Assembly: GCA_038850515.1 (NCBI GenBank)
Contig: JAWCLV010000003.1
Location: 1,620 to 65,619, forward strand
DNA: 64,000 nt
Source of the DNA: Candidatus Bathyarchaeia archaeon
GTDB taxonomy: Archaea; Thermoproteota; CALKCG01; B24; JAGTQN01
Reading direction: 5' to 3'
Position 1 is the first letter of the stretch, and each line of letters starts with the position of its first letter. Both the position numbers and the translations under genes were made by a program. The notes beneath the pieces were generated by a model. The model saw only the letters and a list, made by a program, of their open reading frames with translations. It was not told the origin of the DNA and did not search any database. Shown here in pieces: positions 1-39,939 of this stretch.

Positions 1-1060
1 TGCTCCTGCCTTCATAGCCTTCATAGTCCCCAAAGTAAACGATCTCCTTTCCCCCAGGATTCCAGATAGTCTTTGGGTACCAGGCTTCGATGCTCTCGTA
101 ACTCCAGCTAGAGGGAATCATCAGTATCTCAAAGCGATTGTCAAGATTGTCGTACTCGTAAAGTCTATATTCATTTATGATGGGAAGGTCCCTTACCCTC
201 TCCATAAGGGCGCTGCTGATGATGCTATCGACAGCTGTGATGCTCCATCTTGTTGGGACAAGCCTTCGATGGGGCTTTAATCCGAAGGCTCCTATGCTAA
301 AGGCCCTCTGAATCTTGGTTACGAGGATGCCCTCCCTATAAAGCGTTAAGACAGCCTCCGAAGCCTTAAGGTCCGTGTCAGCATAGACTTTCTCAACGCT
401 CCTATCCCATTTGGCATTTCCCACCTTCATCTTCTTGACGATGGCTGAGGGACCGAAGGGCTGGACCTCATCGTCGAGAAGCATAGATCCCCTTGGGGGC
501 CTATCGAAGGTCAGCTCCAGATCGACGGGCCTCGATGCCAAAGCAAGCTCTGTGATGGATTCGAGGAGCTTTCCTCCGATTCCTACATCCGAGACCTTAG
601 CCCTCGTCTTTCCCCTTACTAGCATAGACCTGAAGGCTACGATCTCCTCTATTTTTCTACCTATCCAAAGCTCCGGAAGGTCTAGGAGGGCCGTATCGCC
701 TAGGATTGGGGGTGTAAGGGGGCCCACATAAACATGGGGATAGCCTATGCGCCCTACGAATACGCCTGGTGGCGTTGAACCTGCCATGGTTTCGGAGCTG
801 ATTTTTGGGGCTACTTGGAAGAATGAGGAAACTCTAAGTATAATAGGGCATCGAGCTTTTCCACAGAGCATCCGGGCCCCTTTGCAGGCGACGCAACGGT
901 AGGCCCCTTCTCCTGCTTGAAACCTTAAAAAGCCCTCCCTTATTGCCAGATCCGATAGGATGGCTGGCTCTTCTACAATCCTAGCCAGTTCAAGACCGAA
1001 GGTAGAAGGGTCTAGGACTCTTGATCTCTTCGGAGGAGGGATGGGGCCTCCAGGATTCAT
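1..1060 (-). CDS. Nre-family (NreA-like) DNA repair protein; the 3' end runs off the window
   Basis: Absent from the ORF track because it is open to the window edge. My translation of the minus strand from ATG 1060 gives MNPGGPIPPPKRSRVLDP...YRCVACKGARMLCGKARCPIILR...PPGVFVGRIGYPHVYVGPL... This Cys-cluster plus GYP layout is what I associate with archaeal Nre (DUF650/DUF651) proteins. Confidence 0.55.
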   Translation of the reverse strand, partial: MNPGGPIPPPKRSRVLDPSTFGLELARIVEEPAILSDLAIREGFLRFQAGEGAYRCVACKGARMLCGKARCPIILRVSSFFQVAPKISSETMAGSTPPGVFVGRIGYPHVYVGPLTPPILGDTALLDLPELWIGRKIEEIVAFRSMLVRGKTRAKVSDVGIGGKLLESITELALASRPVDLELTFDRPPRGSMLLDDEVQPFGPSAIVKKMKVGNAKWDRSVEKVYADTDLKASEAVLTLYREGILVTKIQRAFSIGAFGLKPHRRLVPTRWSITAVDSIISSALMERVRDLPIINEYRLYEYDNLDNRFEILMIPSSWSYESIEAWYPKTIWNPGGKEIVYFGDYEGYEGRS

Positions 1061-15564: not shown

Positions 15565-15725
15565 ATGCTTCGATGCGATTTAAGCTTAAGGATCAACCTT
15601 TAAGAATGGCCGCCTCAGTAGACTGATTAAAGTAGAGCAACGACCAGAAGTAGTTTCATTTTAAGTTATGCCATGAAAGGAAAAAACCATATTAGAGAGT
15701 ATTCTTTCTTCATTATGGATAAGCC

Positions 15726-16166
15726 ATGAGCAAGCCTGTAGATGCAGGTTCTTTGAAGGTAGGCATGACCATCCTCCTCGATGGGGAGCCCTCTAGGATC
15801 ATCGAGGCCGAAAAGTCCAAGCCAGGGAAAGTAGGCTGAGCTTCCCTCGCCGCCCCGAAGCATGGATCCGCTAAAGTTCGGATCGTGGCTGTTGGACTTT
15901 TCGACGGCGCTAAGAGGAGCTTCGTTGGTCCAGCCGATGCAAGGGTCGAGATCCCTATAATCGATAAACGCGTAGCTCAGGTAATCGCCATAACGGGAGA
16001 AAGCCTTCAGCTGATGGATATGGAGACCTATGAGGTTTTCGAGGTCCCCCTTCCCCAAGAGGAGGATATCAGAAAGAGGCTTGAGCCATCCATCGAAGTA
16101 GAGTATTGGCGATCCATGGGGAAAAGTAAGGTCGTAAGAGTGCGGGGGACTACCACTAAAGCTTAA
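15726..16166 (+). CDS. eif5a: Translation initiation factor 5A (aIF5A), interrupted by a 30-nt stop-containing insertion at the hypusine Lys codon
   Basis: My translation from ATG 15726 gives [35 protein letters not shown], then VG and a TGA stop. The same frame resumes at 15861 with [21 protein letters not shown]...[18 protein letters not shown]. The track shows only the GTG-started 3' part (15885..16166). Confidence 0.85.
15830..15859 (+). other. Candidate bulge-helix-bulge (BHB/BHL) intron within aIF5A (boundary ambiguous within 15828-15861)
   Basis: Removing 30 nt restores ...[12 protein letters not shown]... in frame. A central GGG/CCC helix, AAA and AAG 3-nt bulges and an inner 5-bp helix can be drawn (see finding). 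Confidence 0.5.
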
Positions 16167-16198
16167 GTTTAAGTAAGAAAAAGGAAGTCGTGAAAGGT

Positions 16199-16314
16199 GG
16201 GCCGGTAGCTCAGCTTGGTGGAGCGTTCGGCTGATAAGCCCTGAACCTCTCATGCCCGGAGACCGAAGCCCTTGGGGGCGGGAACGGTCGAGAGTTCAAA
16301 TCTCTCCCGGCCCA
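16199..16314 (+). tRNA. tRNA-Ile(GAU): tRNA-Ile (anticodon GAU at 16233-16235) with two insertions: a canonical 37/38 intron (about 16237-16261) and a second 17-nt insertion (about 16268-16284)
   Basis: Acceptor stem GGGCCGG/CCGGCCC. D arm GCTC-AGCTTGGTG-GAGC. Anticodon stem TTCGG...CCGAA with loop CTGATAA once 25 nt are removed. T arm GAGAG-TTCAAAT-CTCTC. Discriminator A. No encoded CCA. Confidence 0.85.
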
Positions 16315-16652
16315 CTAATTCAGGAGTACATTTATATAGCCCTGCCTAAGCTCCTCCTTTTCTCTAGACCTCCATGGGCTCCGATACGCCAAGGCCCTAG
16401 GAAACCCTTCTAAAGGTTCGTGGCTGGGAAAGCGAATATGCTAGCGTTGAAAGGCTTCCGCGGCATCTGAAGCGCAAGACGGGGAGCGAGGGCTCTAGGG
16501 CTATGTACCTGAAGACCCTAGCCCAGCTTGTCGCCTTACCTAAGAAGAGGTCGAGAAACTGGTCCAAGAGTTCTGCGATCAAGCTAGGAATACCGTGAGG
16601 TATGCCTTGCGATAAAAACCCTACGAGCCCAGATGAGCTTAGGACATTAGGT

Positions 16653-33496: not shown

Positions 33497-33617
33497 TGCG
33501 GGGGGTGGGATTCGAACCCACGAAGGGCTACCCCACGGGATCTTGAGTCCCGCGCATCTGGCCATCGAAATGTTTAACGTCGCATCGATCGTTTCGACCT
33601 GGCTCTGCTACCCCCGC
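33497..33617 (-). tRNA. tRNA-Leu(CAA): tRNA-Leu (anticodon CAA, complement of 33543-33545) with an insertion of about 36 nt in the D-arm
   Basis: The reverse complement gives GCGGGGG-TA-GCA-GAGCCAGGTC[...]AGA-TGC-G-CGGGA-CTCAAGA-TCCCG, a long variable arm (TGGGGTAGCCCTTCGT), GTGGG-TTCGAAT-CCCAC-CCCCCGC-A. The gene is 121 nt against about 85 expected. Confidence 0.85.
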
Positions 33618-37000: not shown

Positions 37001-37352
37001 GGATCTTCACCCCAGAGCCCTTTGGGTTTTCCTCCATGAGGGATTTTATGAATACGCAACGACCGCCGTTTTCCTCGATGCGCCTCTTGGCTTCCTTAGA
37101 GAAGGATAGGGCTGCCACCGTTACCCTATGGTCCAGCTTTCCGGTACCTAGGACCTTGCCAGGAATCAAGAGGGTCTCTCCTTCCTTGGAGAGACGGTTA
37201 ATCTTCGAAAGGTTCACTTGAGCCCTGAGCCTTCGAGGTGCCTCTATCCGTTCGGCTATGGAATCCCATATGGGAGCATCGTTAAGCTTTGCGGCCCTTC
37301 TTAGCTCCTTCACCATATCTAAAAGGATGGGATTACTCTTCCTTCCCTTCAT
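36993..37352 (-). CDS. rpl18e: 50S ribosomal protein L18e
   Basis: NPILLDMVKELRRAAKLNDAPIWDSIAERIEAPRRLRAQVNLSKINRL...LIPGKVLGTGKLDHRVTVAALSFS. Confidence 0.9.
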   Translation of the reverse strand: MKGRKSNPILLDMVKELRRAAKLNDAPIWDSIAERIEAPRRLRAQVNLSKINRLSKEGETLLIPGKVLGTGKLDHRVTVAALSFSKEAKRRIEENGGRCVFIKSLMEENPKGSGVKILA

Positions 37353-38244
37353 ATCCTTCCCCTTCCTCTTCCTTCTCCTCCTTCGCTTCCTCTCCTTTGG
37401 CTTCCTCCTCTGCCTTCCCTTCCTCCCCTAGAAATTCCGAAAGGGACTTCTTGAAATCCTCAGCCTTCTCCATGAGAATCTTGGCTGCTTCAAGGACTAT
37501 CCTCCGATTGGGCAAGCCTCCCAAGGTTTCCAGCGTATAGATGAAGCTTGAGCTATCATAGGCTACATTTATCGCTCCGACTGGGCATGCCTTCATGCAA
37601 TCGCCGCAGAGGGTACAATCCATGAGCCTTTCAACCTTCAAAGCTCCCTCCCCTAGGCTCAAAACCTTCCTATGGCAGATATCTACGCATTTACCGCAAT
37701 CCTTCCCTACGCACTTTGTTCGATGAATGGATATCTTGGGCATGAACTTGTAGGCACAAAGGCTTAAGGGCTGCCACTTGGCATGCATTTCACCCGTTCC
37801 CAACCTTGCATAGGCTTCGAGCTTAACCCTCTGACCTTGGGCCAGCTTTACGATGGGGATGTCGCCATTCACAACTTTTATGGAGGGATTCGAGGGATCC
37901 GTGGCTAGATCCCTTGAATAGACCGTTTTCACATCTTCCTCCGCCTTCACCTCAAGGGTGAATACTACCCGGCATTTGCTGCATCCGAGCTCGCTCTTGC
38001 AAGAACATTCTTCGGGCATCACATATGTATCGAGGTCCGTAATCAAGGGGATGAGCCCAAGTCGATGAGCTAGAATTTCATCATACATTACGGAAGTGTT
38101 CTCTATTATAACAACATCGTCGATGGCCATGGTTGGGACTTCCGCTAGCATAGTCCTCCTCAGGGCGCTAGCGAAAGGGATGGATGAACCGCTCAATAAA
38201 AAGCGAAGGGTATTCCCATCCTCGCTTAGGATTTTTACCTGCAC
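37333..38244 (-). CDS. rpoD: DNA-directed RNA polymerase subunit D (Rpo3) with a 4Fe-4S ferredoxin-like insertion and an acidic tail
   Basis: FASALRRTMLAEVPTMAIDDVVIIENTSVMYDEILAHRLGLIPL, plus Cys clusters CGKCVDIC and CTLCGDCMKACP. GTG start at 38244. Confidence 0.9.
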   Translation of the reverse strand: MQVKILSEDGNTLRFLLSGSSIPFASALRRTMLAEVPTMAIDDVVIIENTSVMYDEILAHRLGLIPLITDLDTYVMPEECSCKSELGCSKCRVVFTLEVKAEEDVKTVYSRDLATDPSNPSIKVVNGDIPIVKLAQGQRVKLEAYARLGTGEMHAKWQPLSLCAYKFMPKISIHRTKCVGKDCGKCVDICHRKVLSLGEGALKVERLMDCTLCGDCMKACPVGAINVAYDSSSFIYTLETLGGLPNRRIVLEAAKILMEKAEDFKKSLSEFLGEEGKAEEEAKGEEAKEEKEEEGEGYEGKEE

Positions 38245-38428: not shown

Positions 38429-38827
38429 ATGGCTTCAAGAAAGGCTGAAAGATGGGGAGTTGCCCATATATACAGCTCCTCAAACAACACCATAGTCCAC
38501 ATCACAGACCTCTCAGGCTCGGAAACCATAGCCATCGGGACGGCTGGCATGTTCGTGAAGCAGGATCGCTTAGGGGGTTCCCCCTACGCGGCAATGCAGA
38601 ACGCAAGTCAGGTGGCTTCCATCGCTAAGGATAAAGGCATTACGGGGCTTCATATCAAGGTAAGGGCACCTGGAGGGCCAAAGGCAAAGATACCGGGACC
38701 TGGAGCCATGGCTGCGATAAGAGTCCTTTCGAGGGCCGGTTTTAGGATAGGAAGGGTTGAGGACGTTACCCCCATTCCCCATGATGGCACGAGACGGCCA
38801 GGTGGAAGGAGGGGAAGGAGGGTCTAA
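38429..38827 (+). CDS. rps11: 30S ribosomal protein S11 (uS11), encoded on the opposite strand to the rest of the operon
   Basis: [27 protein letters not shown]...[33 protein letters not shown]...[44 protein letters not shown]. Confidence 0.95.
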
Positions 38828-38908: not shown

Positions 38909-39472
38909 TTAGAACTCTGCCTCGGCCTCCTTAATTTTCTGGCTGGATTGGATGGCTTCTATCGATACGCGAAGGGGATGGTCTTCTTTGGCTAGAGGAC
39001 TTGAGGGCGCATAGCCTATAATGCCCTCCTCTTCAACCGTCACATGATAGGAGGGGACTCGAACAATCTTGGGACCAATGGCTATGTGCCCATGGGTTAT
39101 GAGCTGCCGGGCCTGCTGGATGGTCTTTGCAAAACCCTTTCGAAATACCAAGGTCTGAAGCCTTCTTTCAAGAATATCGTTAACCGTCAGGTCGAGGACG
39201 TCATCCAAGGTTGCCCCCTCGGAAACGAGGCCCTCCCTTCTGAGCTTATCCAGAAGGGTCTTCTCAGCCTTCGCCCGTTCTTCAGCCGATTTTCCTAAGA
39301 GGCTTCTCGCCAGTTTCCTATACCGCGAAACCTTCGTTTTATGCCTCCAAAGCTCCCTTTTGTTTCGGAGCCCATACTCTCCTAAAAGTCTCAGTTCACT
39401 CTCCAAGGTTTGCAATGACCATGGAACCCTGGGCGTCTCATATTTCTTCCTGTTACGCTTTGGATCTCCCAA
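38909..39472 (-). CDS. rps4: 30S ribosomal protein S4 (uS4)
   Basis: MGDPKRNRKKYETPRVPW...LLGEYGLRNKRELWR...LERRLQTLVFRKGFAKTIQQARQLITHGHIAIG. Confidence 0.95.
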   Translation of the reverse strand: MGDPKRNRKKYETPRVPWSLQTLESELRLLGEYGLRNKRELWRHKTKVSRYRKLARSLLGKSAEERAKAEKTLLDKLRREGLVSEGATLDDVLDLTVNDILERRLQTLVFRKGFAKTIQQARQLITHGHIAIGPKIVRVPSYHVTVEEEGIIGYAPSSPLAKEDHPLRVSIEAIQSSQKIKEAEAEF

Positions 39473-39474
39473 GG

Positions 39475-39939
39475 CTATCGACCTTCGATGCGCTTCTTTC
39501 TCACGCCTACAGCCCTTCCTGTTCTTCCCGTCGTCCTAGTTCTTTGTCCCCGGACCTTCAAGCCAAGGCTATGCCTTATGCCCCTCCAGCTCCTTATCTT
39601 TTTCATATTATCGATGTCGGCCTTAGTTTGAAACTCCAAATCGGGTCCTATAAGATGAAGGTCCATGCCCATTTGTAGATCCTTCGGGCGATTGCACATC
39701 CAGCCTGGAAGCCCATGGGCAGGAAGATTTTTCAAGGCCGTTTCAATCCTATGGACCTCCTCATCGCTGAGATACCCTATACGCTTTGTAGGGTCGATCC
39801 TCAATACCCTCAAGAGAGCCCTGCCCATTCTAATCCCTATGCCCTTTATCTTCGATAGCCCATAATCGATTCGCATAGTGCCATCTAGATCGACACCTGC
39901 GATCCTGACTATGTAACGGTATTCCTGCAACGATTTCAC
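39475..39939 (-). CDS. rps13: 30S ribosomal protein S13 (uS13)
   Basis: YIVRIAGVDLDGTMRIDYGLSKIKGIGIRMGRALLRVL...IRSWRGIRHSLGLKVRGQRTRTTGR. Confidence 0.95.
   Translation of the reverse strand: MKSLQEYRYIVRIAGVDLDGTMRIDYGLSKIKGIGIRMGRALLRVLRIDPTKRIGYLSDEEVHRIETALKNLPAHGLPGWMCNRPKDLQMGMDLHLIGPDLEFQTKADIDNMKKIRSWRGIRHSLGLKVRGQRTRTTGRTGRAVGVRKKRIEGR

Follow-up and report, generated by a model that had tools for sequence, protein, structure and literature searches.

How can an archaeon produce an essential translation factor from a gene whose reading frame is closed by a stop codon inside the hypusination loop? This question is raised by a 64,000-nucleotide stretch of DNA (hereafter the window, in which all coordinates are counted from the first letter) from a Candidatus Bathyarchaeia archaeon (GenBank assembly GCA_038850515.1, contig JAWCLV010000003.1), where the gene for aIF5A, read on the forward strand from ATG 15726, runs into an in-frame TGA at 15837–15839. 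An original prediction, made from the sequence and its open reading frames (ORFs), held that the gene is split at the codon of the hypusinated lysine by a 30-nt insert containing this stop codon, and that the insert is a candidate archaeal mRNA intron bordered by a relaxed bulge-helix-bulge (BHB) splice motif. The conservation of the insert, the selection acting around it, the ordinary use of TGA, the rarity of the fold, the placement of sequence variants, and the tRNA introns of the same window all support that proposal. The 30 nt at 15830–15859 are probably an endonuclease-type (BHB-type) intron in the aIF5A pre-mRNA, which would be cut out by the splicing endonuclease EndA and whose flanks would be joined by an RtcB-type ligase.

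The split aIF5A gene and its conservation

Translation of 15726–16166 in one frame gave the interruption described above, and the ORF listing accordingly held two pieces at this locus, a 37-aa ORF at 15726–15839 and a 93-aa ORF with GTG 15885 as its only possible start; these are also the two ORFs that gene callers annotate. Deletion of 30 nt (15830–15859) restored a 136-aa aIF5A. The start of the insert can slide over 15827–15831 within a flanking G/A repeat: deletions starting at any position from 15827 through 15830 all yielded ...SKPGK/HGSAKV..., and a start at 15831 left AAA at the junction, which retains the lysine. As assigned here, exon 1 (15726–15829, plus strand) comprises codons 1–34 and the AA that opens the hypusine-lysine codon, the candidate intron (15830–15859, plus strand) carries the in-frame TGA, and exon 2 (15860–16166, plus strand) begins with the G that forms the third base of the lysine codon, continues with HGSAKV..., and ends with the stop codon TAA at 16164–16166.

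The joined protein matched three Pfam domains, IF5A-like_N (PF21485), EFP_N (PF08207), and eIF-5a (PF01287). It aligned with the solved aIF5A structures 8PUT, 1BKB, and 1IZ6 with E values of ~1e-42 and no gap over the junction, and its SKPGKHGSAK segment was aligned with these structures. The features of the aIF5A/eIF5A family, namely, a KOW/SH3-like domain, the hypusination loop S/T-K-x-G-K-H-G-x-A-K, and a C-terminal OB fold, were all present in the joined protein. A gap-free alignment, both to the structures and to 159 orthologous loci, was obtained only once the 30 nt had been removed. The lysine at the split codon is the residue that is hypusinated in aIF5A and eIF5A. From the alignments, the split can thus be assigned to the codon of the hypusine-modified lysine, and the first part of the original prediction is borne out by translation, Pfam, and structure alignment. 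Further copies of the insert, which were sought as a sign of a mobile element, were found neither in the window nor in the fetched loci (160 loci). On the opposite strand, an antisense 195-aa ORF (15666–16253, minus strand) overlaps all of aIF5A and part of the adjacent tRNA gene; it is almost certainly spurious, and it could be mis-annotated since the true gene is split.

The insert was present in five assemblies derived from four different sequencing samples. Besides the window, these were contig JAGTQN010000105.1 of Candidatus Bathyarchaeota QZM_A2_bin_28, which came from a scan of species genomes, the Logan contig SRR27730040, and the Logan assemblies SRR28530380 and SRR28530381, which were reached by an exact look-up of the exon-1 peptide. 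The three Logan assemblies encode the exact 37-aa and 93-aa products. QZM_A2_bin_28 is a metagenome-assembled genome (MAG) from Tibetan hot-spring sediment, sampled at 57 to 83 °C, and belongs to Bathyarchaeia "Family-1.1" (PMC8407382). Compared with the window, the insert was identical in this MAG (0/30 differences) and contained one or two single-nucleotide polymorphisms (SNPs) in each of the Logan assemblies. Five assemblies carry the insert, and SNPs within it and in its surroundings set them apart from one another; the insert is therefore no assembly artifact, and the possibility that it arose by an error of sequencing or assembly is refuted for practical purposes.

Orthologues were taken as the best 80 loci from species genomes and the best 80 loci from JGI metagenomes. 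Among them, every locus except that of QZM_A2_bin_28 was uninterrupted, with an identity of 67% or lower. From this distribution, the insert appears to be limited to one narrow lineage, a genus- or species-level group, and it looks recently acquired.

The aIF5A genes of the window and QZM_A2_bin_28 differed with a dN of 0.016 and a dS of 0.262, giving a dN/dS of 0.06. When all five sequences were considered, the exons showed 26 synonymous and 5 non-synonymous variants, which lay on either side of the insert, and the three variable sites within exon 1 were every one synonymous. The three variants within the insert, by contrast, would each be non-synonymous in an in-frame reading (S to F, S to C, and A to T; Fisher P = 0.009). 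Two synonymous changes, at 15872 and 15875, precede the first in-frame start codon of exon 2 (GTG 15885), and therefore this stretch can only be translated by reading on from exon 1. The pattern of variants shows strong purifying selection on both exons, as read in the spliced frame, and no such selection on the insert. Furthermore, TGA is an ordinary stop codon in the window: it terminates 16 of the 50 long ORFs, including the neighboring gene and genes in tightly packed operons. Selection, conservation, and the ordinary use of TGA together mean that the 30 nt must be removed or skipped to make the protein.

Three ways of using or abandoning the interrupted gene as it stands can be weighed against these data. 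If the UGA were read through or recoded, the product would gain 10 extra residues, VGxASLAAPK, in the hypusine loop; the length of the insert is a multiple of three and Lys-His-Gly still follows, as such a product would need. However, the stop codon usage rules out recoding of UGA, all three insert variants change an amino acid while the exon variants are overwhelmingly synonymous, and no insertion in this loop occurs among ~160 orthologues or in the solved structures, so that translation of the insert is highly improbable. It is barely credible that the 37-aa and 93-aa ORFs yield two polypeptides that then assemble as a two-piece protein, even though gene callers annotate exactly these ORFs. 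The second ORF would start at GTG 15885 and would be devoid of HGSAKVRI, a stretch that shows synonymous changes only; no Shine-Dalgarno (SD)-like sequence lies ahead of 15885; and the break would hit the tip of the modified loop within a single small beta-barrel domain.

The third possibility is a pseudogene, with the working aIF5A encoded elsewhere in the genome. The analysis covers the 64-kb window, so a second copy could exist elsewhere, and a broken copy of an essential gene such as aIF5A would need a backup. Against this stand the low dN/dS and the excess of synonymous changes on both sides of the insert. The insert is also more conserved than the introns of the tRNA-Ile gene that follows aIF5A (see below): the latter showed 5/25 and 2/17 differences between the window and QZM_A2_bin_28, against 0/30 in the aIF5A insert. 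In addition, only one aIF5A locus of the related MAG (JAGTQN...) was found among the best 80 species-genome matches, and the window is otherwise an intact housekeeping locus, with genes for ribosomal proteins, RpoD, enolase, ABCE1, DNA ligase, Kae1, and DnaK/DnaJ/GrpE, of which S3Ae alone is broken. We therefore regard a pseudogene as most unlikely.

The conservation is uneven along the gene. Relative to QZM_A2_bin_28, exon 1 had a dS of 0.043 and exon 2 a dS of 0.35, and the 26 nt preceding the ATG contained 10 mismatches. A block of ~158 nt at 15714–15871, which spans exon 1 and the intron and reaches 12 nt into exon 2, contained a single substitution. The quiet exon 1 and the conserved block suggest an RNA-level constraint on the motif region that may extend beyond the intron.

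Folding of the RNA around the insert

The minimum-free-energy (MFE) fold of 15812–15870 (59 nt, AAAGUCCAAGCCAGGGAAAGUAGGCUGAGCUUCCCUCGCCGCCCCGAAGCAUGGAUCCG) had an energy of −18.4 kcal/mol, accounted for 49% of the ensemble, and was BHB-like: ...(((((.((..(((...((.(((.(((.....)))))))))))...)).)))))... An exon-exon helix (h) is formed by 15815–15822 and 15860–15867 (both plus strand), which pair at 7/8 positions; in abbreviated numbering (158xx), the pairs are G15.U67, U16-A66, C17-G65, C18-G64, A19-U63, G21-C61, and C22-G60. The A20xA62 mismatch in this helix is imposed by the Lys and His codons, and the helix is shifted by one nucleotide from the strict register, with C15823 unpaired. The original prediction had seen no outer exon-exon helix and had classed the site as bulge-helix-loop (BHL)-type; the presence of this helix overturns that point. 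Inside it lies an internal loop (C23 and A24 versus G57, A58, and A59), followed by the central helix (H), in which the 5′ strand AGGG (15824–15827, plus strand) faces CCCG at 15854–15857 (plus strand) with three G:C pairs, G25-C56, G26-C55, and G27-C54, and an A24.G57 apposition.

The two predicted cut sites border this central helix. At the 5′ splice site, the bulge AA/A (15828–15830, plus strand; the slash marks the predicted cut, after A15829) lies between the central helix and the intron helix and is unpaired with a probability of ~1.0 in the local fold. At the 3′ splice site, AA/G (15858–15860, plus strand), A58 and A59 are unpaired and G60 is paired with C15822 in the local fold; the predicted cut is after A15859. 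Between the two sites, the intron folds into a hairpin (h′, 15831–15853, plus strand) of 8 bp, G31-C53, U32.G52, G34-C51, G35-C50, C36-G49, G38-C48, A39-U47, and G40-C46, closed by a loop at 15841–15845. All of the pairs drawn in the original prediction, i.e., the four of the central helix with A24.G57 among them and five of the inner helix, were present, together with its bulges at A28–A30 and A58–G60. The inner helix extends by the last three pairs beyond the point at which it had been drawn to end. Cuts after A29 and A59 would excise exactly 30 nt and rebuild GGG-AAG-CAU (Gly-Lys-His). The site thus has two unpaired border sites on opposite strands, a helix of ~4 bp between them, and the right junction. 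The local MFE fold is a relaxed BHB, as had been expected of a fold around the splice sites, and on this model the aIF5A site would be placed in the relaxed class, nearer to the full helix-bulge-helix-bulge-helix form (hBHBh′) than to BHL.

An alternative to the local exon helix is a long-range helix between exon 1 (15807–15824, plus strand) and exon 2 (15886–15908, plus strand), whose core, GAAAAGUCCA/UGGACUUUUC, forms 10/10 Watson-Crick pairs. In folds of longer transcripts, this helix replaced the local exon helix (P 0.9–1.0); the 3′ site was then located in a loop, a BHL-like variant, and the central helix and intron hairpin had P ~0.4 at 37 °C. Co-transcriptional folding would favor the local exon helix over the long-range one.

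The rarity of this arrangement was assessed in three ways. A loose BHB scan (three or more pairs in H and two or more bp in the inner helix) was uninformative, as 1.3% of (start, end) pairs matched, 116,820 on one strand, and shifted-register controls gave nearly as many matches. A stricter test examined the topology of MFE folds. The central helix had to lie in register, the three nucleotides of the 5′ bulge and those of the 3′ site had to be unpaired, an intron helix had to adjoin the bulge, and the exons had to form 6 or more pairs with each other. This in-register topology of aIF5A was found in 1 of 63,942 random 59-nt windows taken from both strands of this sequence. The lone random fold (417–446, minus strand) is located within an uninterrupted Nre-like ORF, in frame, and is a chance match that serves as a false-positive control. 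Finally, both strands were scanned for potential introns of 12–80 nt that have this topology and whose removal restores a long ORF broken by them. Seven matches were obtained, and aIF5A was the only one that an intact gene does not explain; the other six were antisense to, or inside, intact genes.

Comparison with orthologues bore on the pairing as well. The variable site of the insert at 15844 (C/T/G) falls in the hairpin loop, and the change G15852A, shared by SRR28530380 and SRR28530381, converts U32.G52 to U-A. All three substitution events within the insert leave the predicted fold intact, so far as these few sequences indicate; they are consistent with the model but statistically not decisive because two-sided covariation is absent. 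In 159 intron-less orthologous loci, the sequences corresponding to the local exon helix formed a mean of ~4.4 of 8 pairs, and only 3/159 loci (two of them the same contig) reached 7/8, which is the maximum that the Lys and His codons permit. For the 10-nt long-range core, the mean in the orthologues was ~5.8 of 10 pairs, and none reached 10. The exon-exon helices of the intron-bearing gene are therefore at the maximum complementarity that the protein sequence permits, in the top ~2% of the 159 orthologues. These comparisons suggest that the S-K-P-G-K-H-G-S coding sequence is intrinsically self-complementary and that the intron-bearing lineage is at the extreme; such complementarity could reflect either a pre-adapted site or selection that followed the insertion. 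The long-range complementarity, which is maximal here, likewise follows in part from the EKSK...G(L/I/V)F coding sequence that all aIF5A genes share.

Several observations weigh against the interpretation as an intron. The site departs from the strict hBHBh′ form with four standard pairs and two clean 3-nt bulges: its central helix has only three standard pairs, and at its 3′ site an internal loop (1x2 or 2x3) takes the place of a clean 3-nt bulge. Windows of intermediate size have competing folds, in which the P of H ranges from 0.14 to 0.42 depending on context and temperature. The folding energy does not stand out (z = −1.47 for the 59-nt window and −0.30 for the 86-nt window), and the two windows fold differently; energy alone neither supports nor refutes the intron model. 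The narrow lineage of the insert gives low comparative power. Pair counting found no two-sided covariation and only the single one-sided change, and the scans of the best 80 species-genome and best 80 JGI loci for more distant intron-bearing relatives gave only intact genes besides QZM_A2_bin_28. The spliced aIF5A of this lineage is also absent from the protein collection, in which the best full-length match was 67% identical.

tRNA introns and irregular genes in the window

The window contains three tRNA introns, two of which are at non-canonical positions. The gene for tRNA-Ile(GAU) (16199–16315, plus strand), which starts 33 nt past the aIF5A stop codon, was identified by Rfam and by ARAGORN (run with its intron option as well as on spliced sequences). 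Its first intron (16237–16261, plus strand; 25 nt) is at position 37/38 and its second (16268–16284, plus strand; 17 nt) is in the variable region; both are kept in QZM_A2_bin_28, with changes confined to loop parts. The gene for tRNA-Leu(CAA) (33497–33617, minus strand) was found by a T-arm motif search and reading of the sequence. It has an intron of ~36 nt in the D-loop (~33593–33558, minus strand), for which the best register gives an H of GGUC/GGCC with bulges GA/A and AG/A. Neither ARAGORN nor Rfam (at either threshold) detected this gene as it stands; ARAGORN called a tRNA-Leu after the insert had been removed. The original prediction had counted the same three insertions and had presumed from them that the host endonuclease tolerates relaxed motifs. 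This premise is supported by the tRNA-Ile and tRNA-Leu introns: the non-canonical ones among them mean that relaxed motifs outside the canonical position must already be cleaved in this host.

The variable-region intron of tRNA-Ile, ~400 nt from the aIF5A insert, has a central helix of A62.G82, C63-G81, C64-G80, and G65-C79, bulges AA/G and AA/C, and an inner helix of 3 bp. It thus has in common with aIF5A a helix of one A.G apposition and three G:C pairs with AA/N bulges, and the sequences at the cut sites are similar (CCGAA/G and GGGAA/C in tRNA-Ile; GGGAA/A and CCGAA/G in aIF5A). Both tRNA-Ile introns, including that at 37/38, have 3/4 pairs in H. The near-mirror cores of the second tRNA-Ile intron and aIF5A raise the possibility of a common origin or of co-transcription. 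No gene for EndA, RtcB, or DHS was found within the 64-kb window.

The similarity of the cut sites also bears on programmed translational bypassing, in which the 30 nt would be kept in the mRNA and a ribosome with peptidyl-tRNA-Lys would hop from AAA (15828–15830) to AAG (15858–15860) to make the same protein. Two Lys codons exactly 30 nt apart bound the gap, which has a stop codon and a compact hairpin, and bypassing predicts a selection pattern identical to that of splicing, i.e., constrained exons, a non-coding gap, and a conserved gap structure. The take-off and landing codons, however, are not identical, and the UGA is two codons past the take-off codon rather than adjacent to it, whereas bypassing of the gene 60 type has identical codons and a stop directly after take-off. 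No SD-like element was found in the sequence ahead of the landing site. Furthermore, bypassing leaves unexplained both the match of the cut-site geometry to the host tRNA intron sites and the maximized exon-exon helix, and to our knowledge it is undescribed in Archaea. It is very unlikely to be the explanation here. If it were true, aIF5A, itself the factor that rescues stalled ribosomes, would provide the first case of programmed translational bypassing in an archaeon.

For the preferred explanation, an intron in the pre-mRNA, the following course is proposed. After transcription, the exon flanks and the intron would fold into a relaxed helix-bulge-helix-bulge-helix, with either 15815–15822/15860–15867 or the long-range 15807–15824/15886–15908 as the exon helix. 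The 5′ site would be held in the 3-nt AAA bulge and the 3′ site in a two-adenine loop, with the 8-bp intron hairpin between them. The host EndA, presumably the same enzyme that is needed for the non-canonical introns of tRNA-Ile and tRNA-Leu, would cut after the second bulge nucleotide on each side, i.e., after A15829 and A15859, and an RtcB-type ligase would join the exons. Joining would regenerate GGG-AAG-CAU and drop the in-frame UGA, giving a full-length aIF5A with its hypusination loop. The predicted spliced junction is ...CCAGGGAA/GCAUGGAUCC... (junction string CCAGGGAAGCATGGATCC), and unspliced RNA would hold GGGAAAGTAGGCTGA. The idea in the original prediction that splicing could gate aIF5A production is speculation, and so is a milder variant in which splicing is regulated and intron retention tunes the aIF5A supply.

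Two other loci of the window are irregular. The reading frame of the ribosomal protein S3Ae (eS1) gene on the minus strand (1720–1798 region; ORF 1112–1594 and upstream) is broken close to the 5′ end, and the break is conserved. An ATG at 1760, with GGAGGT directly upstream, opens a frame that stops at 1724–1722 (MVSVFQGKKGKG*), and the rest of the conserved N-terminus (...DKWRAKAWFSVYSPPYFGEV...) is encoded in the +1 frame, in which a start codon is lacking. The break is common to nine assemblies, the window and 8 further ones. In two of them, the +1 frame has a TGA right after the ATG, and therefore the change of frame must occur downstream of it. S3Ae needs a skip of 3n+1 nt, for which a +1 frameshift near GGA-UAA-G and a very short intron are possibilities; no convincing BHB was found at the break. 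The S11 gene (38429–38827, plus strand) is opposite in strand to its usual neighbors S13 (39475–39939), S4 (38909–39472), and RpoD (37333–38244), all on the minus strand, which points to a local inversion in a normally colinear cluster.

Relation to known introns and significance

Introns in cbf5 pre-mRNAs of Desulfurococcales and Sulfolobales were reportedly described by Watanabe (2002) and Yoshinari (2006), and EndA is said to cut the HVO_1309 mRNA of Haloferax volcanii (Schwarz, 2020). Relaxed BHB/BHL motifs at non-canonical tRNA introns are reportedly the subject of work by Marck & Grosjean (2003) and Sugahara (2008). The cbf5 introns are 16–44 nt long, are located at relaxed BHB sites within the codon of the catalytic Asp, and are mostly described as of the relaxed class; both cbf5 and tRNA introns are cut between the second and third bulge nucleotides (Yokobori, 2009; PMC2738675). 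According to a 2023 review, the EndA-spliced archaeal mRNAs are those of cbf5 and Haloferax HVO_1309, and more are expected (PMC10485636). The statement in the original prediction that cbf5 is the only established case thus has to be widened to include HVO_1309 (PMC10485636). A literature search found no report of an intron in aIF5A.

The aIF5A insert resembles the cbf5 introns in being short and in an essential RNA- or translation-related gene, in having a relaxed BHB at its borders with predicted cuts between the second and third bulge nucleotides, and in interrupting the codon of a critical residue, here the hypusinated Lys. The hosts, too, are alike in being rich in non-canonical tRNA introns. 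It differs from them in its gene and its lineage (hot-spring Bathyarchaeia versus Thermoprotei), in its very narrow distribution, and in being in-frame with a stop codon. There is no sequence relationship between the two, and the splicing of aIF5A is a prediction from sequence. As in HVO_1309, a BHB motif lies in an mRNA with the tRNA splicing endonuclease as the processor (predicted for aIF5A); unlike HVO_1309, whose host is a euryarchaeon with an alpha2 enzyme, aIF5A needs splicing to restore its frame. With relaxed tRNA introns it shares the predicted enzyme and the geometry, most closely in the adjacent tRNA-Ile with its A.G plus three G:C helix and AA/N bulges, but the substrate is an mRNA coding region, where protein coding constrains the exon side of the motif.

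Parallels can be drawn with two more distant systems. HAC1 and XBP1 of eukaryotes (IRE1 with RtcB or Trl1) likewise involve a short, spliceosome-independent mRNA intron, a protein endonuclease acting at structured sites, an RtcB-type ligase, and an altered protein; their endonuclease and motif are different, and they are stress-regulated. T4 gene 60 and the byps of Magnusiomyces mitochondria have a short non-coding gap with a stop codon in the ORF, synonymous flanking codons, and a hairpin, but the codons of aIF5A are non-identical, its stop codon is not adjacent to take-off, and its BHB geometry would be left unexplained. It is well supported computationally that the aIF5A insert has the structural and evolutionary characteristics of EndA-type mRNA introns in the relaxed form; it is not homologous to the cbf5 introns, and it is not a new mechanism.

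EndA-spliced introns in archaeal protein genes are known for essentially the cbf5 family and one haloarchaeal mRNA. The split calling of 37-aa and 93-aa ORFs means that automatic annotation and completeness estimates miss aIF5A. The aIF5A intron would add a new gene, the first translation factor, and a new lineage, the thermophilic Bathyarchaeia, and it would be a young, narrowly distributed case with intron-less relatives for comparison. As a hypothesis for its origin, the self-complementary SKPGKHGS coding sequence could already have supplied the exon half of a BHB. Beside cbf5, aIF5A would be the second case of an intron in the codon of a function-defining residue.

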